From: a virus
Length of the DNA stretch: 64,000 nt
IMG/VR virus record: IMGVR_UViG_3300037111_000040
Location: 57,715-121,714 of that record
Strand: one strand, 5' to 3'
Under the pieces are notes generated by a model. That model did no database searches. It was given only the letters and a program-made list of their open reading frames with translations, and was not told the DNA's origin. Position numbers and translations under genes: made by a program. Below are positions 7,598 through 45,606 of this stretch, one piece after another (positions within the stretch are counted from its first letter, which is position 1; each line of letters opens with the position of its first letter).

Positions 7598-8802
7598 GCG
7601 AACTGCTGAATTACGTCAGTGACCCCGAGAACGCGGAGTATAACTTTTCGCTGGGGAACTGGTATGAAAACCAAGGTCACACCGCCGCAGCAGCCGGGTT
7701 CTACATCAGGACAACTGAATACTCAACGAACGCCTTGCTCATCTACGAGGCGCTTTTGCGACTTGCCAACTGTTTTACACGGCAGGGCTGTCGGGTCTAC
7801 ACGACCAAAGGCATTTTGCTCAGGGCCATCTCTCTGATGCCCGACCGGCCAGAAGCCTATTTTCTTCTGAGCCGCTTGTACGAGGTCAACAAGGATTGGC
7901 AGGAATCCTACACCTTCTCGATTATGGGTCAGAAGCTGCATGAAGACCACCCAAAGTTACGCACGAACGTGGACTATCCGGGGCGATACGCCTTGGTGTT
8001 TGAACAAGCTGTATCTGCATGGTGGATTGGTCTGTTCGATGAATCCCTTCATCTCCTTAGACAATTGAAGAAGAATCCCACGATGTTGCCAGTACACATT
8101 ATGGCCGTACAGAATAATCTACAGAGGCTCGACGGCACGTTGTGGACTGACCCACTAATCTACTATGGCTCGATGTACGAGCAACTGCGGGTCAAATTCC
8201 CCGGTTCACGATTCATCGAACGCAACTATTCGCAGATGTACCAAGATATGTTCGTGTTGACGATGCTCAACGGGAAGCGCGATGGTACGTTTTTTGAACT
8301 CGGATGCGGAGACCCCACCTTCACGAACAATACGAAACTGCTTGAGGAGTGGGGATGGAGCGGTGTGTCCATCGACATAAAACCGTCAATAACAGCGAAG
8401 TACGCCAAGGAACGAAAAAGCACCGTCATCACTGGTGATGCCGTAAAATTGGACTACGATGCGCTAATCACAAAAGACTACGACTATCTGCAAATCGACA
8501 CCGACCCGAACTCCTTCAACGTATTGTTGCAGCTACCGTTTGAAACTCGAAAATTCGCTGTGATTACATTTGAACACGACGACTACCTCTCTCCTGACCC
8601 CACTGTCAAGGAGCGTAGTAGACGGTATCTTGAATCACATGGCTACCTTCTAGTCGTTGGTGATATTGCACCGAGGAAATACGATAGCATGGAAGACTGG
8701 TGGATTCACCCCGATCTGGTCGATCCAAAGATCGTGGATCGAATGCGCGACAACGGTACCGGCGTTAAAAGAGCGGACGAGTACATGCTCATGCACGCGT
8801 AA
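7594..8802 (+). CDS. TPR-repeat plus FkbM-like SAM methyltransferase fusion
   Basis: N-terminal TPR-like helices ('PDRPEAYFLLSRLY'); 'YSQMYQDMFV...FFELG...NNTKLLE...YLQIDTD...ITFEHD...EDWW'. Confidence 0.7.
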   Translation: MSELLNYVSDPENAEYNFSLGNWYENQGHTAAAAGFYIRTTEYSTNALLIYEALLRLANCFTRQGCRVYTTKGILLRAISLMPDRPEAYFLLSRLYEVNKDWQESYTFSIMGQKLHEDHPKLRTNVDYPGRYALVFEQAVSAWWIGLFDESLHLLRQLKKNPTMLPVHIMAVQNNLQRLDGTLWTDPLIYYGSMYEQLRVKFPGSRFIERNYSQMYQDMFVLTMLNGKRDGTFFELGCGDPTFTNNTKLLEEWGWSGVSIDIKPSITAKYAKERKSTVITGDAVKLDYDALITKDYDYLQIDTDPNSFNVLLQLPFETRKFAVITFEHDDYLSPDPTVKERSRRYLESHGYLLVVGDIAPRKYDSMEDWWIHPDLVDPKIVDRMRDNGTGVKRADEYMLMHA

Positions 8803-8899
8803 GGATTTTTAGGGCGTTTATCTTGTAATCGGTGTAGAATGGCGATGTGTTGAGCGGCGGTCCGGGAGCCGGTGCTCGCCTCGCGTTTGGAGGTGTGCC

Positions 8900-32130: not shown

Positions 32131-32583
32131 ATGACGTAGATCGATTCCAAGACGTACTTTTACCTCTTCGTTCGGCAAGACCTCCCCATCGCTGCACAGA
32201 TCGTGCAGACGAACCACGCGACATTTGATATGGCTTACACGCTCACCCAGAGCGCCGATCCTTCTACGCCTTCCATCGTGCTCATAGGCGTTCCCGACAA
32301 AAAAGCGCTTCACAAGGTAATCCAGAAGCTCAAGCTGAATCGCATCGAGTTCTCGGAGTTCCACGAGAGCGATGACGATCTGGGACTCACTGCGGTCGCG
32401 ACGATTCCTCTCGACGAGGATCAGCGCGCGGTGCTCCAGAACTACAAGCTTTGGAACGAAAACAATTTGACATACGCGCCTAGCTCAGTGGTCAGAGCGC
32501 CGTTGCAGTCTGACGGAGGTCCGAGGTTCGAATCCTTGGGCGCGTACCAACGGGCGGATAGCTCGACTATGCAGGAGGTGTGA
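32131..32583 (+). CDS. PTH2-like peptidyl-tRNA hydrolase with in-frame TAG at codon 3
   Basis: ATG ACG TAG ATC GAT...; frame continues 'YFYLFVRQDLPIAAQIVQTNHA...IVLIGV...FHESD...LTAVA...YKLW'; TTGACA at 32095. Confidence 0.7.
32474..32549 (+). tRNA. tRNA-like element, anticodon AGT (Thr), inside the PTH2-like ORF
   Basis: 76 nt; ACGCGCC/GGCGCGT acceptor, TAGCTCAGTGG D arm, GGTTCGAATCC T arm, CCA; atypical loop GC AGT CT. Confidence 0.7.
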
Positions 32584-32878: not shown

Positions 32879-33122
32879 GGATTTCTCCTCGCGAGATCGT
32901 CGCGGCTGTGGTTGAAATGTTTTCTGGGACCGTGTACGTCATAGTCGCGCTGACCCCGAGAGATTCAGTGATACTCCTGCCCGGTTCACGGCGGCGATTG
33001 TAAACGTCATTGAGGTAGGACGGCGACACGCCCAATGTCTGGGCAAAGTCCTTCTGGCTTTTCTCGCCCTGAAGCGTCTTCATGATTTCGAGGAGGCCAT
33101 CGATGTTCGTCACCGTGTGCAT
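32802..33122 (-). CDS. Helix-turn-helix regulator
   Basis: 'SQKDFAQTLGVSPSYLNDVYNRRREPG'. Confidence 0.65.
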   Translation of the reverse strand: MHTVTNIDGLLEIMKTLQGEKSQKDFAQTLGVSPSYLNDVYNRRREPGRSITESLGVSATMTYTVPENISTTAATISRGEIHGQVHKENQKRIKAKGQRKSRKRSD

Positions 33123-33468
33123 AAATTCGAGAATACGCGGATTTGCGTATTTGTCAAGAAGGACACCGCAGATGAAGAATTTATTGACTACCGGCCCGCG
33201 AGGCGCTACCGTTCTGGTATGGCAAGTACCGCCTTTCAGCCGATCATCGACCTTGTCAAGGGCTGGTCTGACAAGTTGCAGGGCGCTGAGGATTTCATCA
33301 ATAAGCTTCCGGTTCCCGGAAAATCCTCCACCATGAAAACCAGCAGGGGCAAGCCCCCCCTCGCGACCTCGTGGTACTACTACGGCAAGCAACAGCCGCC
33401 GCGCCCCGGCGAGCAGAAGGCCGTGGCCCGCAAGCGCATCCCAAAAAAGTGATAAACCGATGAAGTGA

Positions 33469-34182
33469 TTAAAGGTACTTTAGATTACATTCATCGCAAT
33501 GCCATGTGGTTGATGGGCTTTTGCAGGCGACACACAGCCCTTTCATCCGAATGGCGCGAGTTCGCTCGCTTGTTCGTTTGGCGTTAGCTTCGCGACAGAG
33601 ATCGCATCTACATCTGTGATAGGTATAGGTCGTGGTGACACCATGTATTGGCTTTGGTTTTACTCGTGGAGGCAAGGATGCCCGCGAGAGAGCATCACAA
33701 GAGAAGCCAAGCAATCCGGCTATTTGCCTCACCGTTTTCCCGTCATTTCGCAGCGATTCTATTTCAAGGATGTTGGCTCGAATCTTCTCTGAATTAGATT
33801 GACGAGCGGAAGATGAACCGACAATCTGGCGCACATATTCTCTTGTAAAACCGTATTTATTCCCAATTTTTTGCAGTGTCCAACCATCCCTACGGAGGAC
33901 TTTCATTTCCTCTCTGCGCGGATCGGCAGGTTTGGGTGGTATGGAGGCCCCAAGATCGTAGAATCCTGCCAACTCTCTGTTTAATCCCGGCCCATTATCA
34001 ACGTGCCACTTGCTGTGACAAAATAAGCAAAGCCAACGCACATCTAGTGGTCTTGCATAATCGTCGTGGTGGGCGACAAGCCGTCGCTGTGCCCCACATT
34101 CTTCGCATAAGAGCGCGATTGTAATGCTTCCACGCTCAACCGCTGCTTTGACGAGTAGGTGAACGCGGGCCATTTTTTTCAA
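33469..34182 (-). CDS. Zn-finger/HNH-like plus HTH DNA-binding protein
   Basis: 'CEECG...AHHDDYARPLDVRWLCLFCH', 'TLQKIGNKYGFTREYVRQI'. Confidence 0.65.
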   Translation of the reverse strand: MKKMARVHLLVKAAVERGSITIALLCEECGAQRRLVAHHDDYARPLDVRWLCLFCHSKWHVDNGPGLNRELAGFYDLGASIPPKPADPRREEMKVLRRDGWTLQKIGNKYGFTREYVRQIVGSSSARQSNSEKIRANILEIESLRNDGKTVRQIAGLLGFSCDALSRASLPPRVKPKPIHGVTTTYTYHRCRCDLCREANAKRTSERTRAIRMKGLCVACKSPSTTWHCDECNLKYL

Positions 34183-34189
34183 AAACCTC

Positions 34190-34218
34190 TTGACAGTTTT
34201 CCTGATTGATTATATCGT
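34190..34218 (+). promoter_or_regulatory. Sigma70-like promoter of tRNA array 2
   Basis: TTGACA-17 nt-TATCGT. Confidence 0.7.
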
Positions 34219-34225
34219 GGAAAAC

Positions 34226-34297
34226 GTGAGAACCCGATTCCATAACGCAGCGACACAGCCGACGCAACCAGCCGGTAATAGCGGCGGTGCGGACTAG
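34226..34297 (+). CDS. Attenuator leader peptide 2 (MRTRFHNAATQPTQPAGNSGGAD)
   Basis: GTG 7 nt after -10; codons match the 12 downstream anticodons. Confidence 0.8.
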   Translation: MRTRFHNAATQPTQPAGNSGGAD

Positions 34298-34339
34298 GGG
34301 TCTCAGACAGATTTTTTCCTAACACAGATGGAAAAACTT

Positions 34340-34380
34340 GAGACCCCCAGAACCGAAAGGAACTGGGGGTTCTCGTTTGT
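34340..34380 (+). terminator. Attenuator terminator upstream of tRNA array 2
   Basis: GAGACCCCCAG...CTGGGGGTTCTC-GTTTGT; competing 9-bp helix GGGGTCTCA(34297-34305)/TGAGACCCC(34339-34347). Confidence 0.8.
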
Positions 34381-34388
34381 GGGGATGT

Positions 34389-34463
34389 TCAAGGGTAGCT
34401 CAATGGTAGAGCCCACGGCTGTTAACCGTGTCGTTGTGGGTCCGACTCCCACCCCTTGAGCCA
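34389..34463 (+). tRNA. tRNA-Asn(GTT)
   Basis: CACGG-CT GTT AA-CCGTG, CCA. Confidence 0.9.
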
Positions 34464-34473
34464 GTTTAGAAGT

Positions 34474-34549
34474 TGGCTCTTCGTTCAATGGTTGAGGACC
34501 TTCGCCTCTGGAGCGAATGATCTGGGTTCGAGTCCCGGAGAGCCAGCCA
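34474..34549 (+). tRNA. tRNA-Gln(CTG)
   Basis: TTCGC-CT CTG GA-GCGAA, CCA. Confidence 0.9.
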
Positions 34550-34561
34550 AGTTTGAGTTGT

Positions 34562-34635
34562 TCCCGGTTCGTTCAGTGGCAGGACGTGGGCCTTTGGAAC
34601 CCAACACGGGAGTTCGATTCTCCCACCGGGTGCCA
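34562..34635 (+). tRNA. tRNA-Gln(TTG)
   Basis: TGGG..CT TTG GA..CCCA, CCA. Confidence 0.85.
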
Positions 34636-34636
34636 C

Positions 34637-34710
34637 GCGGGGTTGATGTAGCGGTAGCATCGAAGTGTGCCACACTTTGCGCATCGGTTCGAACCCGATA
34701 CCCCGCTCCA
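34637..34710 (+). tRNA. tRNA-Gly(GCC)
   Basis: GAAGT-GT GCC AC-ACTTT, U73-CCA. Confidence 0.85.
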
Positions 34711-34789
34711 CTTTGGAGGAAGAAGAATGAAGATCGATTTGAACGCCGACATGCAGCATGTTTTCGCACGGTTGGCGAAAGGATTTCGA

Positions 34790-34864
34790 GCACCGTTAGT
34801 TGAGTCGGCACAACACGACCCTCGTAACGTCGAAGCCCCGGTTCGATTCCGGGACGGTGCTCCA
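34790..34864 (+). tRNA. tRNA-Thr(CGT)
   Basis: CGAC..CT CGT AA..GTCG, CCA. Confidence 0.85.
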
Positions 34865-34897
34865 CAGATTGACGAGAGGTAGAAGAAAGGGGATTCC

Positions 34898-35443
34898 ATG
34901 GCACTCATACGGAGAGCGGTACTACAACTTAACGCGTCGTATGAGCCGCTGAGAATCGTCAGCGCGCGAAAGGCGCTCACGCTCATAACCAAGGGCGTTG
35001 CCGTGGTGGAGGTGCCAACCAGCATCCAAGTCCACAAGGGAATCTACCTTCCTTCCGTCATCCGTTTGCGGCACTACAGGAACGTCCCGCACCGGATGCA
35101 GCAGGTTTCGAGGAAGAACATTTTCATTCGCGACGGTTTCAGGTGCATGTACTGCGGCGCGAAGAAGAACAACGGGGCAGAGCTTGAACTGGAGCACGTG
35201 ATCCCGAGAAGCAGAGGTGGTAAGCAGTCATGGGACAACCTTGTTGCTGCCTGTTCCCCGTGCAATAGACGTAAGAACAACCGGACGCCGGAAGAGGCTG
35301 GAATGAAGTTGATCCATAGGCCGCTGCCCGCGAATATCTTTACAAGCCGCTTCATTTTGAAACAGCTTGGCAGAGAAGTTGAGGAATGGGGAAAGTTCCT
35401 TTTTTCTGATTCCGAAGGCGAAACGAGGTTACAATTTAGGTAA
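34898..35443 (+). CDS. HNH endonuclease (McrA/HNH_5-like)
   Basis: 'VLQLNASYEPL...RDGFRCMYCG...EHVIPRSRGG..SWDNLVAACSPCN..KNNRTPEEAGM'. Confidence 0.9.
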   Translation: MALIRRAVLQLNASYEPLRIVSARKALTLITKGVAVVEVPTSIQVHKGIYLPSVIRLRHYRNVPHRMQQVSRKNIFIRDGFRCMYCGAKKNNGAELELEHVIPRSRGGKQSWDNLVAACSPCNRRKNNRTPEEAGMKLIHRPLPANIFTSRFILKQLGREVEEWGKFLFSDSEGETRLQFR

Positions 35444-35446
35444 AAG

Positions 35447-36169
35447 ATGCGCAAACTCGTCGGCAAAATTTACTTAATTCGTAATCTCGCGAACGGCAAG
35501 GGGTACGTCGGCCAGACCACGAAACAAACTGTGTGGATAAGGTTCAACCAGCACAAATACGAGGTCAAGCGCGGAAGCAATCTGCCCATACATAGGGCGA
35601 TGAGAAAGTGGGGAGTTGAAAACTTCACAGTTATCGAAGTCGCCTCGTGTGATCCACTTTTGCTCGACGATCTCGAAAAGCACTTCATCAAATTCTACAA
35701 AACCTACATCACAAGCGGTCGCGGCTATAACAGGACGGCAGGAGGGTACAGCGGATTCAACAGAGACGGAATCAGGATTCTTACAGAAAAGGGAAGCTCG
35801 ACACTTTCAGATGTCCATAAGGGAAACTCTTATGCCAAGGGGCACAAAGTATCGGAAGAAGGAAGAGCGAGAATGGCCGAGGCTGCTAGAAATAGAGGAC
35901 CGGTAACGCGCTCGCCAGAGTTGAGGGCCAGAATCTCGGCCACCTTGAAAGGACACCCTGTTGCAGAGGAATCGAGAGCGAAGATGTCAGCGTCGCACAA
36001 GGGGGTAAAAGTCGGCTACCGGAAACGCAGGCCGATGTCGGATGAGCACAAGGCGAAGATTTCCGCGAGTATGCGTGGAAAGAGGAAAACTCCGGAGTCC
36101 ATAGCCAAGAGACTTGCGACTTGTGCTTTGCTTAACACGGGTGACACAAGATACCAGTTTGTTAACTAA
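35447..36169 (+). CDS. GIY-YIG homing endonuclease with NUMOD3-like repeats
   Basis: 'GKIYLIRNLANGKGYVGQT...GYNRTAGG'; 'SEEGRARMA', 'EESRAKMS', 'SDEHKAKIS'. Confidence 0.9.
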   Translation: MRKLVGKIYLIRNLANGKGYVGQTTKQTVWIRFNQHKYEVKRGSNLPIHRAMRKWGVENFTVIEVASCDPLLLDDLEKHFIKFYKTYITSGRGYNRTAGGYSGFNRDGIRILTEKGSSTLSDVHKGNSYAKGHKVSEEGRARMAEAARNRGPVTRSPELRARISATLKGHPVAEESRAKMSASHKGVKVGYRKRRPMSDEHKAKISASMRGKRKTPESIAKRLATCALLNTGDTRYQFVN

Positions 36170-36213
36170 CATAAATGTTCGTTATCGTCTCCAAATTTTG
36201 CTATACTCGGGAG

Positions 36214-36939
36214 ATGAAAAACGAAGAAAGGCGAAAAGCTGCTCGGAGGCGGTGGTACTACAGGAACAGGAAATCCAAGAAGGTGTTGAAGTCGCGAATT
36301 CCTGACGTACCGCTGCTTTCTGTTGAGGAACGTAAGACTATTAGCAGGGCGAATGCTGTGGTTGCGCTGGCGAAAGCTCATGCTAAAGCAAAAATCAAAT
36401 CGGATCAGATACAACGTAAGAGAGAAGAGCGTCGATGCGTAATTTGCGGCGGTCCTGTTCTCGTTAAGAATCTGAAAGCAAAATCGTGCTCGGTGAGATG
36501 CGCGAAGATCGCCAGACGAAAAAGAAGAGAGAATTGGGAAAAGGCTTGCGCGTACTGCGGTTCCACATGTTCTGGTCAGAACAAGTATTGCGACGACTGC
36601 AACAAAAGCCAAATCTACAAGATGGCTCAGTCTACTGAAGATGTAAGCGATTCAAAGGCTGTCAAGCGTCTGGTGCTTCGGAGAAGAGGACACAGATGCG
36701 AAGGATGCGGTTTAGATCAGTGGATGGGAAAAGCCATCCCGCTTGAACTTCACCATGTGGACGGGGATTCAGAGAATAACAAAGATGAGAACCTGCAACT
36801 TCTCTGTCCTAATTGCCACGCTTTGACTCCAACGTTTCGTAATCGAAACAAAAGGAAGGCGAGCGAAAGAAGAAGAAAGATAAGAAAGACGAGAGAGTTT
36901 GCCGAAGTAGCTCAAGAGGAAGTAGCGGCGGTTTTGTGA
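36214..36939 (+). CDS. HNH endonuclease inserted in tRNA array 2
   Basis: 'CEGCG...LELHHVDGDSENNKDENLQLLCPNCH'. Confidence 0.85.
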   Translation: MKNEERRKAARRRWYYRNRKSKKVLKSRIPDVPLLSVEERKTISRANAVVALAKAHAKAKIKSDQIQRKREERRCVICGGPVLVKNLKAKSCSVRCAKIARRKRRENWEKACAYCGSTCSGQNKYCDDCNKSQIYKMAQSTEDVSDSKAVKRLVLRRRGHRCEGCGLDQWMGKAIPLELHHVDGDSENNKDENLQLLCPNCHALTPTFRNRNKRKASERRRKIRKTREFAEVAQEEVAAVL

Positions 36940-36976
36940 ACCGCTGATGGGATTTCGAGTATCCCCTTCGGCCCCA
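36901..36976 (+). tRNA. tRNA-Thr(TGT)
   Basis: GCGGT-TT TGT GA-ACCGC, CCA. Confidence 0.8.
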
Positions 36977-37059
36977 AGCTCACTGGGACACGCGGAATCT
37001 CCCGCTTACGGGCGGGAGGGTGCTACCAAGCTATAACGTGTCCCGGTAGCGCGATTCAT

Positions 37060-37138
37060 GGCGGTGTTGGCAGAGCGGTCTATTGCGCGTGTCTGTGGCA
37101 CACGTATTACATCGGTTCGAATCCGATACGCCGCCCCA
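37060..37138 (+). tRNA. tRNA-His(GTG)
   Basis: CGTGT-CT GTG GC-ACACG, G-1:C73, CCA. Confidence 0.9.
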
Positions 37139-37147
37139 AAGTTTTAC

Positions 37148-37223
37148 GGGCCTATAGCTCATTTAGGAGAGCGCCGCACTTGCAATGCGGAGGCGGTCGG
37201 GGCGGAGCCGACTAGGTCCACCA
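37148..37223 (+). tRNA. tRNA-Ala(TGC)
   Basis: CCGCA-CT TGC AA-TGCGG, G3:U70, CCA. Confidence 0.9.
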
Positions 37224-37553
37224 AGTTTGACTGGTGCCTCACCTGTAACGACGTAAGGGTGAAGGCGTCACGGGTCGCACGTCGCAAGGTAGAGGCCCGC
37301 TAAGTTTTTAGGAGAAATATGCGTCAATTCATAAAGCGATCCGAGCGCGGTTTTTCTCAGCGAAGACATGAGGGAGATTTGCGTAGGAGAAAGCAGTTCG
37401 CAAGCAAGATCGCGGATTGTTTCTTTGCTGAGAGTCCTTTCCAGCGGATGCTCATGAGGTGTGGACGCGCTCGGAAGCTGATGCAGGCATATCGCGCGAA
37501 GAAGATGATTCGCAGGCCGAGCAACTTTCGGCAGGATGTTTGGCAAGAGTTTT

Positions 37554-37629
37554 GTCGATTGAGCTAGTGCAGTCATAGCGTCCGCCTGAAGAGCGGAAGA
37601 ACTCGGGGCAGCACCGGGAGTCGACACCA
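37554..37629 (+). tRNA. tRNA-Phe(GAA)
   Basis: TCCGC-CT GAA GA-GCGGA, CCA; atypical T loop. Confidence 0.8.
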
Positions 37630-37630
37630 T

Positions 37631-37707
37631 CGGGGAGGGGCGCGGTCAGGTAGCGCTTCGGTCTCGGGTACCGAAGGTCATGGGTTCGAATCCCATCTCC
37701 CCGACCA
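37631..37707 (+). tRNA. tRNA-Pro(CGG)
   Basis: TCGGT-CT CGG GT-ACCGA, CCA. Confidence 0.9.
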
Positions 37708-37720
37708 TTTTGGAAGTCAC

Positions 37721-37797
37721 ACGGGTGTAGCGAAGTCTGGAAACGCACCTGCTTTGGGAGCAGGGGATCGGGGGTTCAAATCCCTCCACCCGTACCA
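37721..37797 (+). tRNA. tRNA-Pro(TGG)
   Basis: CCTGC-TT TGG GA-GCAGG, CCA. Confidence 0.9.
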
Positions 37798-37807
37798 TTT
37801 TGAATGA

Positions 37808-37884
37808 GGGCCTATAGCGTAGTTGGATGACGCGGCAGACTACGAATCTGTTATACGGGGGTTCGAATCCCTCTAGGCCCTCCA
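37808..37884 (+). tRNA. tRNA-Arg(ACG)
   Basis: GCAGA-CT ACG AA-TCTGT, CCA. Confidence 0.9.
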
Positions 37885-37903
37885 TAAAAAGCGCAGAATT
37901 TGC

Positions 37904-37932
37904 TTGACGCGTTTTTGGAACCGTTGTAAGGT
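37904..37932 (+). promoter_or_regulatory. Sigma70-like promoter of the ncRNA array/Ro60-like operon
   Basis: TTGACG-17 nt-TAAGGT. Confidence 0.6.
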
Positions 37933-37963
37933 TAGAGACGTTGCGTTTTTGAGATTGAGTTTT

Positions 37964-38826
37964 CGCTGACTGTTTGGCTTACATGCGCCTCAAAGCGAGG
38001 CATTTCAATTGAGATGAAACGAACCGGGTGCGATTCCCGGATGTCCCGAAAGGGTTGCCTGACGACTACAGCGGAGAAAAAAATTGGCTTGACTGATTTG
38101 CATACATGCTTTGAGAGCAGGAACACCATGCAGATCGACTACAAGCCATAAAGTTTGTGCTGACTGACTTGCTTACATGTCCTTTGGAGACCGAGGTCGG
38201 AGGTTCGAATCCTTCATCCTCCACCATCAAAGAATTGACGGGGGATTAGCTCAGCGGTAGAGCGCGTAAAATAGCAGATCGACTACAGCACAATGATTTT
38301 GAATTTGGCCTGACAGAAGTGCTTACATGAAGCTCAATTGGTCGAGCATCTGACTCTTAATCAGACGGTAGTTGGTTCAAATCCAACCTGTACCACCCCG
38401 CAAGGGGTAGCACTTCGACTACAGGCCAATAAGTTGTGGCGGGTTAGTCAAAAGCTAACTTCCGGGTCGACTACAGCGGCGACGCTGACTGAGTCGGATA
38501 CATGGAAAAGACGGTTGTATTTGGTTACAACAGTATGGAGGTTCGAATCCTTCACCCGCCACCATCAAGTTTTACTGGGGGACCTAAGAGGTTCCGGAAC
38601 GACTACAGCGATACTGCTGACTGATTCGGATACATGTCTTTTTGGCGCAAGCCAATCTCGGCTCGTAACCGAGTCCCCCAGCCAAGTTTGGGTTGACTGA
38701 AGTGGATACATGACTTTGTTCCGGGGGAAACTCCGGCCCCCTCCACCACCTTATTCGGCTTCATCAATATGGGGGGCGCGAGCCGCAAGGCTCCGCAAAA
38801 TCTAAACCATATCGACTACAACCCAA
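37964..38826 (+). ncRNA. Tandem array of seven Y-RNA-like structured RNAs
   Basis: Seven copies each of TGACWG-N7-TACATG and CGACTACA with covarying closing stems; units approx. 37964-38073, 38085-38148, 38156-38293, 38305-38429, 38438-38563, 38575-38684, 38688-38826; several carry tRNA-like arms. Confidence 0.75.
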
Positions 38827-39410: not shown

Positions 39411-39958
39411 GTCGCATGAACGATGCGGTGACAAAGCTGAGCATGGCCGACTATGTAAGTTATCTTGGAAGAACTTCTGGGCAATCTCTTTATGGCCGCA
39501 TTGAGAAAAATATCAGCCACGAGCCAATGAGTGGTTGTTGGCTTTGGATCGGCTCATCGGACGATAAGGGCTATGCACATATCGGAGCGACGTTACAGGA
39601 TGGCGGAAGAATAGTAATTCGTGTCCACCGTTTCATGTACGTCAAAAAGCATGGGCCACTCGAATTTGGTCAGGTTGTGAGGCATAAGTGCGATGTACGA
39701 TGCTGTGTTAACCCAGACCATCTAATTGTTGGGACTCAACTTGATAATATCCGCGATATGATTCAACGCGGACGCCAGAGGGCCGGAAAAGGTGAGCGAC
39801 ATGCACTATCGGTTTTAACTGAGGAGCGTGTACAAGCAATTCGTAGCCTCGCCGAACAGTGCAATTTTTCGTTCATGAAGTTAGCTCGGATATTTGAGGT
39901 TGACCCGGCAACAATACGTCGCGTGGTTGATCGTGAATCATGGCAGCATGTGGAATAG
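39407..39958 (+). CDS. HNH homing endonuclease
   Basis: 'GCWLWIG...VHRF...VRHKCDVRCCVNPDHL..GTQLDNIRDM' plus HTH. Confidence 0.9.
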   Translation: MSRMNDAVTKLSMADYVSYLGRTSGQSLYGRIEKNISHEPMSGCWLWIGSSDDKGYAHIGATLQDGGRIVIRVHRFMYVKKHGPLEFGQVVRHKCDVRCCVNPDHLIVGTQLDNIRDMIQRGRQRAGKGERHALSVLTEERVQAIRSLAEQCNFSFMKLARIFEVDPATIRRVVDRESWQHVE

Positions 39959-39971
39959 GAGAAATAGGAAA

Positions 39972-41480
39972 ATGACAGAATCTGGTTTAACGAAGCAAAG
40001 AATTTATGCCGAATTGGCACGCAGCCCTCACGGGAAGCTGAGCGACTACATCCCCATCGGCAAGCAAGCCATCGAGCAGGAAGGCGAGTTCTATCAGCAT
40101 CTCGTGGCATGGACGTTTAAGAATTCACAGGTTCGCGATGCGAAGATCGCGCTGCCGGTTCTTGGTCTGGCATACGAAAGCGATTTTGAGCTTCTCGACA
40201 ACAGCATCGCGCACCTCGCGCTGCTCGGCCCGCGTGAGATGCGCAAGGCGTTCGACTTCGTGCGCGAGATGCGCCCGAAGGGAAAGATGTCGCGGATGGA
40301 TCGGATGATCCGCGCCTACCTCCGCCAGAAGGAAGGGGAGAAGGGCTGGGATCACCTTGCCATCCAGCACCGCAAGGTGCTCAAGGCGCTCTACGCTCTT
40401 TCTCGCACCGGTCCGGGCAACCGCCACGTCGCGGCTGTGATCTCCGGCCAGTGGAAGGAGAGCATCAACGGCTCGATGGTCGTGACCAAGCTGGCGTTGC
40501 CAAAGGGATCGATCTTTGAGGCCGTGGCCAACCTGAAGAGCATGTCTCCTGTTGAGGCGGCTGGCGCGATCTTGAGGTTCAGGATTCCGTTCCTTATCGC
40601 CATGGGCGCGCTCGGGGAGAAGGCCAAGGACACTGATCTTGTTCTTGCTCTGATCGAACGCATGTCGCCGACCGAGTTGACGACGAACGTGAAGATGCTG
40701 GAGAAGCTGGGCATGAAGAACAACCCAGCGCTTCGCGGTGCGTTCGAGAAGGCGATGGAGAAGGCTGCGAAGTCGAAGAAGAACACGCTGAAGACGACTC
40801 AGGCCGTCGACGCCGTCGAGGACGAGGGGCTGAAGGAGAAGCTCCGTGGGCTCCAGAAGCAGCAGATCGCTGCGGCTGGCGGACCGGAGGGCAACTGGCT
40901 TGTGCTTGCCGACAAGAGCGGAAGCATGAGGGTGGCCATCGAGGTCGCACGGCAGGTTTCGGCACAGCTTGCTCAGTTCGTCAAGGGCAAGGTGTGGCTG
41001 GTGTTCTTCGACGTTGTCCCGATGACGGTGGACGTGACCGGGCTTTCGCTCGATCAAATCCAGAAGGCAACGCGGCACATTCGCGCAGACGGAGGCACTT
41101 CCATCGGATGCGGTTTGAACCGGATGCTGGAGGAGAAGATCGAGGTCGACGGCATCGCCGTTGTTTCAGACGGCGGCGAGAACACGGCTCCGTTCTTCCA
41201 CAACGTCTACAAGAAGTATTCGGAGTTCGTGGGCAAGGAAGTGCCGGTCTACTTCTACAGCACGAGCGGCGACAACAACACGTTCAGCGGCTACCTGAAC
41301 AACGCAGGGATCGAGTCGCAGATGTTTGACCTTCGTGGAAGCCAGATCGATTACTATTCCCTGCCGAACCTCGTTCAGTCAATGCGTTCGAATCGCTATA
41401 GTTTGGTGGACGAGATTCTGACAACTCCGCTCTTGTCGCTCAGCGACGTGCTCAAGATCGGTGAACTGGTTGGTGCGTAA
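39972..41480 (+). CDS. Ro60/TROVE-like protein (helical N-domain plus C-terminal vWA)
   Basis: About 502 aa; ~310-aa all-helical N-part, then MIDAS 'DKSGSM', 'GGTS', 'VSDGGEN'; adjacent to Y-like RNAs. Confidence 0.65.
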   Translation: MTESGLTKQRIYAELARSPHGKLSDYIPIGKQAIEQEGEFYQHLVAWTFKNSQVRDAKIALPVLGLAYESDFELLDNSIAHLALLGPREMRKAFDFVREMRPKGKMSRMDRMIRAYLRQKEGEKGWDHLAIQHRKVLKALYALSRTGPGNRHVAAVISGQWKESINGSMVVTKLALPKGSIFEAVANLKSMSPVEAAGAILRFRIPFLIAMGALGEKAKDTDLVLALIERMSPTELTTNVKMLEKLGMKNNPALRGAFEKAMEKAAKSKKNTLKTTQAVDAVEDEGLKEKLRGLQKQQIAAAGGPEGNWLVLADKSGSMRVAIEVARQVSAQLAQFVKGKVWLVFFDVVPMTVDVTGLSLDQIQKATRHIRADGGTSIGCGLNRMLEEKIEVDGIAVVSDGGENTAPFFHNVYKKYSEFVGKEVPVYFYSTSGDNNTFSGYLNNAGIESQMFDLRGSQIDYYSLPNLVQSMRSNRYSLVDEILTTPLLSLSDVLKIGELVGA

Positions 41481-41557
41481 TGCCGAAGAAGATTCCAATG
41501 AAGAGGAAGAACATCTTTGTCAACCCCGGTATGGAGAAGACGGAAAGGAGGAAGCCT

Positions 41558-41857
41558 ATGCTTCAGGAATTCAAGAACTTCAATGTGGACGCTGCATCCA
41601 TCGACGAGCTTGTTGCGTTGTCGGCGTTTGGCAAGCAGCTTCGCGGTGAGTTCGAGGCCCAGAAGGTTGCGGTACCCGAGTACGTTTCGGACAACCTGAA
41701 CACCCTCGCTCGCGAGATCGACTCGCGCATGGCCGACCGCCGTGCAACGCGTATCCGTGAGTTGAAGTCGCAGCGCGACAGTCTCAAGACTGCGCAGGAG
41801 AAGCGCGATTCCATCGACAAGGAACTGGCCGCACTTGGCGAGCCTGTCGGCGCGTAA
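41558..41857 (+). CDS. Small coiled-coil protein
   Basis: AGGAGG RBS before MLQEFK; last gene of the operon. Confidence 0.65.
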   Translation: MLQEFKNFNVDAASIDELVALSAFGKQLRGEFEAQKVAVPEYVSDNLNTLAREIDSRMADRRATRIRELKSQRDSLKTAQEKRDSIDKELAALGEPVGA

Positions 41858-43481: not shown

Positions 43482-44606
43482 TCAGACTACGCATAGCGTT
43501 ACTCCGCTTACGTTAGCGTCTGATAGCTCTGCCCGAGCTAATATGTTTACTGCCCCGTTCCTGTCCGCGTGGTCCGTGTGTCCACAGGAGACGCAGAGGA
43601 ATAGCTCCTGAGTCTTCCTGTTGTCTTTGGATACATGATCGCACTTGGCACAGGTCTGGGATGTGTACTTTGGGTCTACGGCAACGAACATCCTACCGGC
43701 CCATTCTGCCTTGTAGGATAGTTGCCTAAACCATTCTGCCCAACTCACGTCTAGAACATGTTTGGCAAGGTTGCCCTTGGACATGCCAGAGACGTTTAAA
43801 TCTTCTACCGCGATAGCATCGTACTTCTGAATCACTGCTGTCGATAGTTTATGGAGGAAGTTCGCGCGCTTGTTGGCAACACGTTGGTGGACTTTCTTTA
43901 GCAGGATAACTGCCTTGCGCCTACGATTAGATCCCTTCTTGCGCCGAGCAACTTTCCGCTGTGCTCTGCGGAGTTCTGCTTGAGCGTTCTGGTAGATTCG
44001 AGGGTTTGGAATCGCCGTACCATCAGAGAATGTGGCGAACGACGCGATGCCTACGTCTATGCCTACCGGCAATCCAGTGGACGGCAACGGCACGGGCTCG
44101 AACTCAAATGTGATCGTCGCGTACCATCCATCTGCTTCGCGTTTGATTGTACACAGCTTGAGCACAGCATCATTCGGGAGCGGACGAGACAACCGCACCT
44201 TGACGTTCCCGATCTTGGAGAGCGATAGTTGATTTCCCTGGAGAGACCAGCCCGTATTATTGAACGCGAAGGAGTTGAAACGATCCCTGCCTTTGAACCG
44301 AGGGAATCCAGGAGCACCGCCAAGTTTGCAGCGACGAAAGAAGTTCTGATAGGCAACGTCGAGCTTCTTTAGAACGTTCTGTAGCACCTGGGAATGGACT
44401 GTTTTGTACTCGGGGACGGCTTCCTTGATTGCAGGCAACTGCTTATCCTGATCGAATCTGCCAACACGTTGGTGGAGTTTATAGGCCCCGATGCGCTCTT
44501 GCAGGGCATCGTTGTATAAAGATCGGCACAGAAACAAGGTCTGGTCCAGCGCCACACGCTGTGCCTTGTTGGGAACTAGCCGATATTTGTGAGTCTTGAC
44601 TGACAT
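43482..44606 (-). CDS. tnpB: RNA-guided nuclease TnpB
   Basis: RuvC 'GIDVG', 'VEDL', 'HADRNGAVNI'; Zn ribbon 'TSQTCAKC...CVSCG'. Confidence 0.95.
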   Translation of the reverse strand: MSVKTHKYRLVPNKAQRVALDQTLFLCRSLYNDALQERIGAYKLHQRVGRFDQDKQLPAIKEAVPEYKTVHSQVLQNVLKKLDVAYQNFFRRCKLGGAPGFPRFKGRDRFNSFAFNNTGWSLQGNQLSLSKIGNVKVRLSRPLPNDAVLKLCTIKREADGWYATITFEFEPVPLPSTGLPVGIDVGIASFATFSDGTAIPNPRIYQNAQAELRRAQRKVARRKKGSNRRRKAVILLKKVHQRVANKRANFLHKLSTAVIQKYDAIAVEDLNVSGMSKGNLAKHVLDVSWAEWFRQLSYKAEWAGRMFVAVDPKYTSQTCAKCDHVSKDNRKTQELFLCVSCGHTDHADRNGAVNILARAELSDANVSGVTLCVV

Positions 44607-44631
44607 GATGTCTCCACTATACACTTGGTCT

Positions 44632-45502: not shown

Positions 45503-45511
45503 AGTGTTGTT

Positions 45512-45605
45512 GGGGGATAGCATCGGCTGTGCGGCGGAGCCTTATAAACTCTGGAGAGCGCCAGATTAGCGCAACGGCACGGTTCAACTCCGTGATCCCC
45601 TACCA
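45512..45605 (+). tRNA. tRNA-Ile(TAT) with long variable arm
   Basis: GGAG..CT TAT AA..CTCT; extra GCGC/GCGC arm; CACGG/CCGTG T stem; CCA. Confidence 0.75.
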
Positions 45606-45606
45606 T

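Follow-up and report, generated by a model that had tools for sequence, protein, structure and literature searches.

A probable leader-peptide transcription attenuator, with codons for each tRNA of the array it precedes, in the genome of an uncultured phage

We analysed a 64,000-nucleotide stretch of viral DNA (the window, bases 57715-121714 of the 121,714-bp IMG/VR virus record IMGVR_UViG_3300037111_000040, rated complete by CheckV), which belongs to an uncultured phage of 121.7 kb and has a G+C content of 51-57%. The window holds 36 tRNA genes in three groups, all on the plus strand, as detected by ARAGORN, and 39 at a lowered threshold. Our subject is leader 2, the segment ahead of the second group (array 2), in which a short open reading frame (ORF) lies directly behind a promoter and upstream of the tRNA genes and is followed by two alternative RNA hairpins, together forming a candidate transcription attenuator (Table 1). 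The gene on its other side, at 33469-34182 on the minus strand, is divergent, and the leader hairpin therefore terminates nothing else. The two other leaders of this genome, 1 and 3, have a layout like that of leader 2.

Table 1. Predicted features of leader 2 and array 2, in window coordinates
Feature	Position	Strand	Remarks
Sigma-70-type promoter: TTGACA 34190-34195, 17-nt spacer, TATCGT 34213-34218	34190-34218	+	10/12 matches
Region 1, candidate anti-antiterminator strand pairing with region 2	34225-34236	+	-11.4 kcal/mol
Leader ORF, 23 codons + TAG, peptide VRTRFHNAATQPTQPAGNSGGAD	34226-34297	+	GTG start 34226, TAG 34295-34297
Putative sensing codons 4-15, one codon each for 11 tRNAs	34235-34270	+	GGT, AAT, GGC follow at 34274-34285
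Region 2, GGGGTCTCA, antiterminator 5' strand	34297-34305	+	Begins at G of TAG (last base)
Antiterminator upper stem-loop, TTTTTCC / GGAAAAA	34313-34336	+	
Region 3, TGAGACCCC, antiterminator 3' strand overlapping the terminator 5' arm	34339-34347	+	Hairpin -21.6 kcal/mol
Terminator: hairpin 34340-34374, -21.2 kcal/mol; 3' arm and tail CTGGGGGTTCTCGTTTG	34340-34379	+	
Proximal tRNAs Asn-GTT, Gln-CTG, Gln-TTG, Gly-GCC, Thr-CGT	34389-34864	+	ARAGORN, Rfam
HNH endonuclease gene	34898-35443	+	Pfam; position conserved in the family
GIY-YIG/NUMOD3 gene	35447-36169	+	Pfam; window-specific insertion
Second HNH gene	36175-36939	+	Pfam; window-specific insertion
Distal tRNAs Thr-TGT, His-GTG, Ala-TGC, non-canonical Phe-GAA, Pro-CGG, Pro-TGG, Arg-ACG	36901-37884	+	

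A megablast search found no near match of 33000-38000 in the phage collection, placement of the genome in a known phage group failed, and PHROGs put a name to few of the large proteins of the window. Relatives were collected with the Ro60-like protein encoded at 39894-41480, 3' of the array, as the anchor; alignment A1 led to 35 metagenome and 12 viral loci, and a PTH2-like gene, used as a second query, to one further locus. The divergent gene next to leader 2, which encodes 237 aa, was also tried as a query and dropped, its single match being 23 residues long and lying in a locus without tRNAs (L002). The relatives are phages of ~80-136 kb that carry three arrays as in the window, in the same order. 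Homologues of leader 2 were found at 15 loci, four of them duplicates, which leaves 11 distinct sequences. Not every tRNA of the relatives was called (in L045, for example, the calls lack Ala and Pro), and L049 was left out of the comparison of codons with array-2 tRNAs because its arrays 2 and 3 had been merged under a 3-kb gap rule. A crude scan for promoters and short ORFs gave 621 matches and served only for spotting leader-like peptides by eye. One relative record, L003/L041, has neither leader 2 nor the first ten tRNAs of array 2; its Pro-TGG and Arg-ACG genes are kept and stand directly after array 1.

The upstream half of the leader is maintained throughout this family. All 11 relatives have a perfect TTGACA, a spacer of 17-18 nt and a -10 hexamer of the form TAnnnT, and in all of them the short ORF keeps its place between the promoter and the tRNA genes. 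The homologous ORFs are 21-27 codons long in the 11 distinct sequences, and 9/11 end in TAG. The GTG of the window lies 7 nt past the -10 hexamer; in the relatives the start codon is found 6-10 nt past it in 10/11 cases, and 15 nt past it in L049.

The codons of the ORF correspond to the tRNAs encoded downstream. As the earlier note on this DNA had read them, codons 4-15 of the frame running from GTG 34226 to TAG 34295-34297 are CGA TTC CAT AAC GCA GCG ACA CAG CCG ACG CAA CCA, and codon 15 is followed by GCC GGT AAT AGC GGC GGT GCG GAC. We compared the leaders with all three arrays, counting a hand-found tRNA-Phe in array 2 and, in array 3, an Ile-TAT-like element together with low-scoring Lys-TTT and Thr-GGT genes. 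For Phe, Ile-TAT, Lys-TTT and Thr-GGT there are ARAGORN-called genes in relatives, and in the window the Rfam tRNA model supports Thr-GGT (42.8 bits) and, weakly, Lys-TTT (23.4 bits), both of which ARAGORN adds at the lowered threshold. On this basis, array 2 reads 17 of the 22 sense codons that follow the start of leader 2, array 1 reads four and array 3 reads two. The corresponding counts for arrays 1/2/3 are 15/4/3 for leader 1 (21 sense codons) and 10/3/17 for leader 3 (28 sense codons). With Phe counted, leader 2 samples 12/12 array-2 tRNAs. Across the whole genome, read in six frames, coverage of all 12 is reached in 7 of 136,471 stop-free segments of 22 codons, and all seven overlap leader 2, with their first codon at 34211-34229. 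Eight further segments cover 11 array-2 tRNAs, two of these at leader 2. Similarly, all 10 segments recovered by the equivalent genome-wide test for leader 3 lie at leader 3.

The statement of the earlier note that every one of the twelve array-2 tRNAs is represented in the leader stands as far as the codons are concerned and needs qualification as to the tRNA-Phe gene. ARAGORN calls the other eleven genes listed in Table 1; tRNA-Phe was called neither by ARAGORN, also at the lowered threshold, nor by the Rfam tRNA model. Folded without constraints, the candidate at 37554-37629 forms a cloverleaf (-24.8 kcal/mol) that has the anticodon loop CTGAAGA and a 3' ACCA, and it aligns with the ARAGORN-called tRNA-Phe(GAA) of relatives, which occupies the equivalent position between Ala and Pro. 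Its T loop, GGCAGCA, is non-canonical or degenerate. An 82-codon ORF at 37319-37567, 76% identical in L005, overlaps with its end the first 14 nt of this candidate gene.

Across the relatives, the composition of the codon panel is retained and its order is not. When codons were grouped into 12 classes (Arg CGH, Phe TTY, His CAY, Asn AAY, Ala GCR, ACA, ACG, CAA, CAG, CCA, CCG and Gly GGY), 131/132 cells were filled across the 11 leader-2 homologues, the sole gap being His in L033. CAA and CCA each occur exactly once in 11/11 homologues, and codons belonging to the other arrays are scarce (Ile in 0/11, Tyr in 1/11, Trp in 1/11 and Cys in 2/11). The order of the codons is shuffled and the peptide sequence is not kept; between L027 and L043, for instance, His is replaced by Asn at one position and Asn by His at another, with the set unchanged. 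Each relative's leader samples all or all but one of its called array-2 tRNAs, L049 being set aside. Judged from the sequences, a codon set that persists while its order is reshuffled points with unusual clarity to selection on composition, not on sequence.

The antiterminator described in the earlier note, a 9-bp helix starting at the last base of TAG, also holds up. Its strands, 34297-34305 and 34339-34347, pair perfectly, and 8 nt are common to the helix and the terminator 5' arm (34340-34350), so that the two hairpins are mutually exclusive; at -21.6 vs -21.2 kcal/mol they are nearly isoenergetic. A partner of the terminator arm as good as that in leader 2 arose in 0/1000 dinucleotide shuffles, and this best partner reaches -17.6 kcal/mol vs -6.4 for the next-best non-overlapping segment. 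In the same shuffle test, leader 1 was no better than shuffles (196/1000) and leader 3 was marginal (42/1000).

MAFFT alignments of the attenuator region (A2, n=11; A3, n=7) placed region 3 out of register, and alignment-free duplex tests were therefore used for the family. A stable hairpin stands before the array in 11/11 sequences (-14.8 to -27.2 kcal/mol), that of the window ending 14 nt before tRNA-Asn. The best 12-nt partner of the terminator 5' arm starts -9 to +5 nt from the first base of the stop codon in 10/11; in L019, the segment at the stop codon is the second-best partner. The terminator arms themselves differ in sequence among relatives (for example GAGACCCC, GGTCCGAGCC, GCGGCCC, CCCTCTAC and GAGGCCC). 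When stop regions and arms were re-paired at random, only 3/20,000 permutations did as well as the cognate pairs, which is to say that the two strands co-vary. The upper stem is likewise changed on both sides in L027, with TTTTACC/GGTAAAA vs TTTTTCC/GGAAAAA in the window.

These results bear on two other explanations of the ORF. The triplets might belong to a translation-independent RNA switch, in which uncharged tRNAs or another factor bind them in a T-box-like manner and stabilise the antiterminator; they are complementary to the array anticodons by construction. An Rfam scan that covered 27500-48500, with matches accepted up to E = 1, detected neither a T-box nor any other cis-regulatory family at 34190-34380. 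Moreover, the triplets stand in one open frame that in relatives starts 6-10 nt past the -10 hexamer and stops at region 2, and twelve consecutive specifiers would be without known precedent, which leaves such a switch with very little probability. The second explanation takes the ORF as a minigene or micropeptide gene, for example one that loads or drops peptidyl-tRNAs for the PTH2-like gene 1.6 kb upstream (32203-32583, 77% identical in L003), with the hairpins as its terminator. A terminator of this kind needs no co-varying competing helix, and the peptide sequence is unconserved, only its composition being retained; we rate this explanation as equally remote.

We conclude, with a probability of about 0.7, that leader 2 is a ribosome-mediated transcription attenuator of the trp/his type for a phage tRNA operon. 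The attenuator proposed in the earlier note is thus supported computationally: promoter, ORF, stop-embedded antiterminator and candidate terminator recur in 11/11 sequences, the codon panel is kept and the helix co-varies. The array-2 tRNAs would probably be made only when ribosomes read the panel codons slowly. In the mechanism we propose, transcription would start at or within a few bases of GTG 34226, and a ribosome would translate the 23-codon leader while RNA polymerase proceeds. Prompt decoding would bring the ribosome to TAG, where it would cover GGGGTCTCA and leave TGAGACCCC free, so that the terminator could form and transcription would stop before tRNA-Asn. A stall at a panel codon (4-15, and up to ~21) would leave region 2 free; on its emergence, region 3 would pair with it before region 4 is made, no terminator would form, and polymerase would read through into the array. 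As the panel contains one codon per array tRNA, including the isoacceptor pairs CAA/CAG, CCA/CCG and ACA/ACG, the switch would work as an OR gate that responds to a shortage of any of twelve charged tRNAs, possibly arising from cleavage or depletion of host tRNAs. With decoding restored by the phage tRNAs, the switch would shut off, giving a self-limiting burst of tRNA synthesis.

Modelling of a ribosome mask, with the footprint set from -15 to +12 nt of the A site, bears on these steps. With the A site at codons 22-24, stop included, the model predicts the terminator only (10 terminator pairs and 0 antiterminator pairs), and with the A site at codons 2-21 it predicts region 2 to be free. All panel codons fall within the zone in which a stalled ribosome is predicted to leave region 2 free.

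Several observations weigh against an attenuator. When region 2 is free, the equilibrium minimum free energy (MFE) structure flips between the two hairpins depending on the mask, with a gap of <~2 kcal/mol, and an A site at codons 5-8 or 14-15 favours the terminator; which way the switch works consequently rests on a kinetic, co-transcriptional argument. The pairing of regions 1 and 2 is not significant across the family (1494/20,000 permutations); the best upstream partner of region 2 lies at the ORF start in 7/11 relatives. No Shine-Dalgarno sequence precedes the leader ORF in the window or in its relatives, so any translation of the leader would have to be leaderless or Shine-Dalgarno-independent, and, given the closeness of the start codon to the -10 hexamer, the mRNA probably has little or no 5' leader. 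The window has an interrupted U tract (TTCTCGTTTG), relatives such as L019, L027 and L004 have a poor one, and the leader-2 hairpin is absent from the list of a simple terminator scan, the loop limit of which is 8.

The codon panel has its own irregularities. In L033, tRNA-His is present and the leader has no His codon. Five of the 22 leader codons in the window (AGA, ACC, GCC, AGC and GAC) are not read by array 2. One of them, the Ala codon GCC at 34271-34273, occurs exactly once in 11/11 leader-2 homologues (the window and 10 relatives), and a cognate tRNA-Ala(GGC) was called in none of the arrays; the conserved codon may be decoded by Ala-TGC, by a tRNA of the host or by the product of an undetected gene. 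Given its degenerate T loop, tRNA-Phe may be non-functional. Finally, the his and leu leaders have tandem codons, and a leader with one codon per tRNA should be far less sensitive.

Some of these points agree with a simpler view, namely that the promoter is an ordinary one and the hairpin behind it either a leaky terminator or an element for pre-tRNA 5'-end processing, with the ORF untranslated and its codon content incidental. The lack of a Shine-Dalgarno sequence and the weak U tracts of several relatives speak for it, as does the indirect nature of the case for leader translation, which we infer. A conserved T(A/G)GGGA(T/C) motif, which may be a processing signal, stands between the hairpin and the first tRNA or inserted gene in the window (34375-34388) and in L005, L004, L043 and L045, with the variants TAGGAGAC in L019 and L027. 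Incidental codon content, on the other hand, is difficult to square with a leader that is the unique genome-wide maximum of tRNA coverage and with a codon set kept in shuffled order in 11 relatives, and a plain hairpin does not call for a stop codon -9 to +5 nt from the competing strand in 10/11, with co-variation. We regard this view as improbable.

An attenuator built as we describe could also answer to a different signal, such as general ribosome speed or transcription-translation coupling (for example under host shut-off, antibiotics or starvation), or could serve only as negative feedback on the tRNA output of the phage, without sensing the depletion of specific host tRNAs. One codon per tRNA implies a weak specific sensitivity, and an almost leaderless start would make for tight coupling of ribosome and polymerase. 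The tRNA array of Anabaena is reported to be induced by general translational stress (PMC8421152). A general speed sensor needs neither three leaders with three array-matched codon sets nor isoacceptor-level conservation in 131/132 cells, and we consider this alternative unlikely, though it is the most serious of those weighed here. Returning to the attenuator with tRNA-specific sensing, its fullest form would make the three leaders, each with about one codon for every tRNA of its own array, isoacceptor-resolved sensors of the charged-tRNA pool: loss of one tRNA species, for example to a host anticodon nuclease, would open the array that replaces it, and the response would shut itself off. We give this extended proposal even odds.

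RNA-library contigs from two studies bridge the terminator (X20, 34268-34496; X22, 34272-34511), which is a weak hint of read-through. These data are contigs from four of six runs that hold parts of the region, possibly with DNA included; they carry no information on start, end, strand or level, and stretches that they leave uncovered are uninformative. Since the contigs show no RNA ends, this limit, too, weighs against the attenuator. Contig X21 has one G missing at 34297; this strain variant retains TAG and a helix of 8 bp. Along 19.8 kb, contig depth ranges from 0 to 55; it is highest at 37940-38400 and in the Ro60-like gene (39894-41480), at 12-30, and at 41120-41780, where it reaches up to 55.

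The earlier note also held that three nuclease genes had invaded a once-contiguous operon. This agrees with the GIY-YIG gene and the second HNH gene, and not with the first HNH gene. A homologue of the latter, with 50-74% amino-acid identity, lies between Thr-CGT and the next tRNA in 11/11 relatives that hold the region, and an additional truncated match lies at the end of L012; since it is in place in all relatives examined, the ancestral operon already carried it. None of the 13 loci searched contains a homologue of the GIY-YIG gene, matches to the second HNH gene elsewhere are no more than weak, and the nuclease gap measures 2036 nt in the window vs 575-779 nt in 10 relatives. From these comparisons, both genes look like recent, lineage-specific insertions. 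In being conserved, the first HNH gene does not resemble a homing endonuclease that has newly invaded, and it may play some part in the tRNA cassette. A crude scan found no plus-strand promoter-like site within 34219-37884 and no plus-strand terminator-like site within 34380-37884. The absence of such internal sites is compatible with one transcription unit, in which the distal tRNAs would be transcribed together with the proximal ones, and is no proof of it.

Other observations concern the surroundings of leader 2 and the relatives. At 34727-34882 lies a putative reading frame of 51 codons, which begins with a GGAGG-like ribosome-binding site and an ATG and extends across tRNA-Thr(CGT) (34790-34864). 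CTGAC-N-TACATG motifs recur around tRNA-like modules at 37940-38400, upstream of the Ro60-like gene (phrog_850); one of these modules is permuted, its T arm and CCA preceding the 5' strand of the acceptor and the D arm, and matches YrlA weakly (27.9 bits). A transposase gene (phrog_506, E 2e-113) lies on the minus strand at 43482-44624, between the Ro60 region and array 3. The element at 45503-45606 is tRNA-like, with a CTTATAA loop (possibly Ile-TAT), a long extra arm and a 3' ACCA; relatives have an ARAGORN-called tRNA-Ile(TAT) at this position, and the ATA codon is present in leader 3. tRNAs with stop-codon anticodons (CTA, TTA, TCA) occur in relatives (L033 at 3854 and 15032; L017/L019 at 9100 and 12875; L043; and L045, as SeC-tca), and none was called in the window. 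In L003, array 1 contains a tmRNA gene (8425-8837, tag AEDNALPMAA), and the segment 15640-16290 holds leader 3 with its terminator, a tRNA-Trp-like 5' part, a 127-codon ORF and then an ARAGORN-called tRNA-Trp; a tRNA gene may have been split or duplicated here by an inserted gene.

Why phages carry tRNA genes is an old question. According to a recent proposal, phage tRNAs stand in for those of the host that defence nucleases have destroyed (PMC10264068, PMC12409363). If our interpretation is correct, the phage measures the decoding of exactly those codons that its tRNAs read and makes the tRNAs on demand, and the depletion hypothesis gains a built-in, testable read-out in the form of read-through at each leader. 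Classical attenuation would then extend from amino-acid operons to RNA genes, a leader of single, heterogeneous codons would prove able to serve as an OR gate with many inputs, and individual tRNA species could be sensed with a compact part taken from nature. Should the isoacceptor-sensor proposal be true as well, the three leaders would form a self-regulating counter-defence circuit, the first case of leader-peptide attenuation controlling tRNA genes.

T-box riboswitches (RF00230) sense tRNA charging by means of a codon-like element and act through a terminator/antiterminator switch. Unlike them, with their single specifier to which a tRNA binds directly, leader 2 would sense by means of twelve codons read by a translating ribosome. 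In E. coli, the tRNA-Phe genes pheU and pheV may have attenuator-like leaders, for which the literature searched gave no confirmation, and a search of full texts, supplementary files aside, found no account of leader-peptide attenuation of tRNA genes. Leader-peptide attenuators that respond to more than one amino acid include the thr leader (Thr and Ile) and the ilvGMEDA leader (Ile/Leu/Val); others are those of trp, his, leu, pheA and pheST. The general principle of such attenuation is covered in PMC1183508. Like the enterobacterial amino-acid attenuators, leader 2 combines a promoter-proximal short ORF containing candidate regulatory codons with mutually exclusive antiterminator and terminator hairpins, the position of the ribosome would decide between them, and more than one amino acid is involved. 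Unlike theirs, its regulated genes would be tRNAs and not biosynthetic enzymes or synthetases, and its panel addresses twelve tRNAs, mostly by single codons and at the isoacceptor level, whereas theirs consists of tandem repeats for one to three amino acids. It also differs in starting 7 nt past the -10 hexamer without a Shine-Dalgarno sequence, in having an antiterminator strand that begins inside the stop codon, and in being phage-borne.

Two further systems come close in other respects. Mycobacterial polycysteine leaderless short ORFs are reported to act as cysteine-responsive attenuators (10.1101/834739); as in the arrangement proposed here, a leaderless short ORF comes first in the operon and codon-specific translation speed tunes downstream expression. 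On the same source, they differ in sensing one amino acid through codon runs and in controlling protein-coding operons. The trn operon of Anabaena sp. PCC 7120 is an inducible long tRNA array, reported to be silent by default and induced when translation is impaired (PMC8421152), and it shares with array 2 its supernumerary, horizontally mobile tRNAs and the adjoining homing-endonuclease genes. In contrast to array 2, it is cellular and not phage-borne, and the main text of that paper gives it no codon-matched leader ORF and does not contain the words 'attenuation', 'leader' or 'terminator'. By analogy with these systems, the mechanism we propose for leader 2 is a known one, the logic of the trp/his attenuators, and what is new would be its use on a tRNA operon, with one codon per tRNA.

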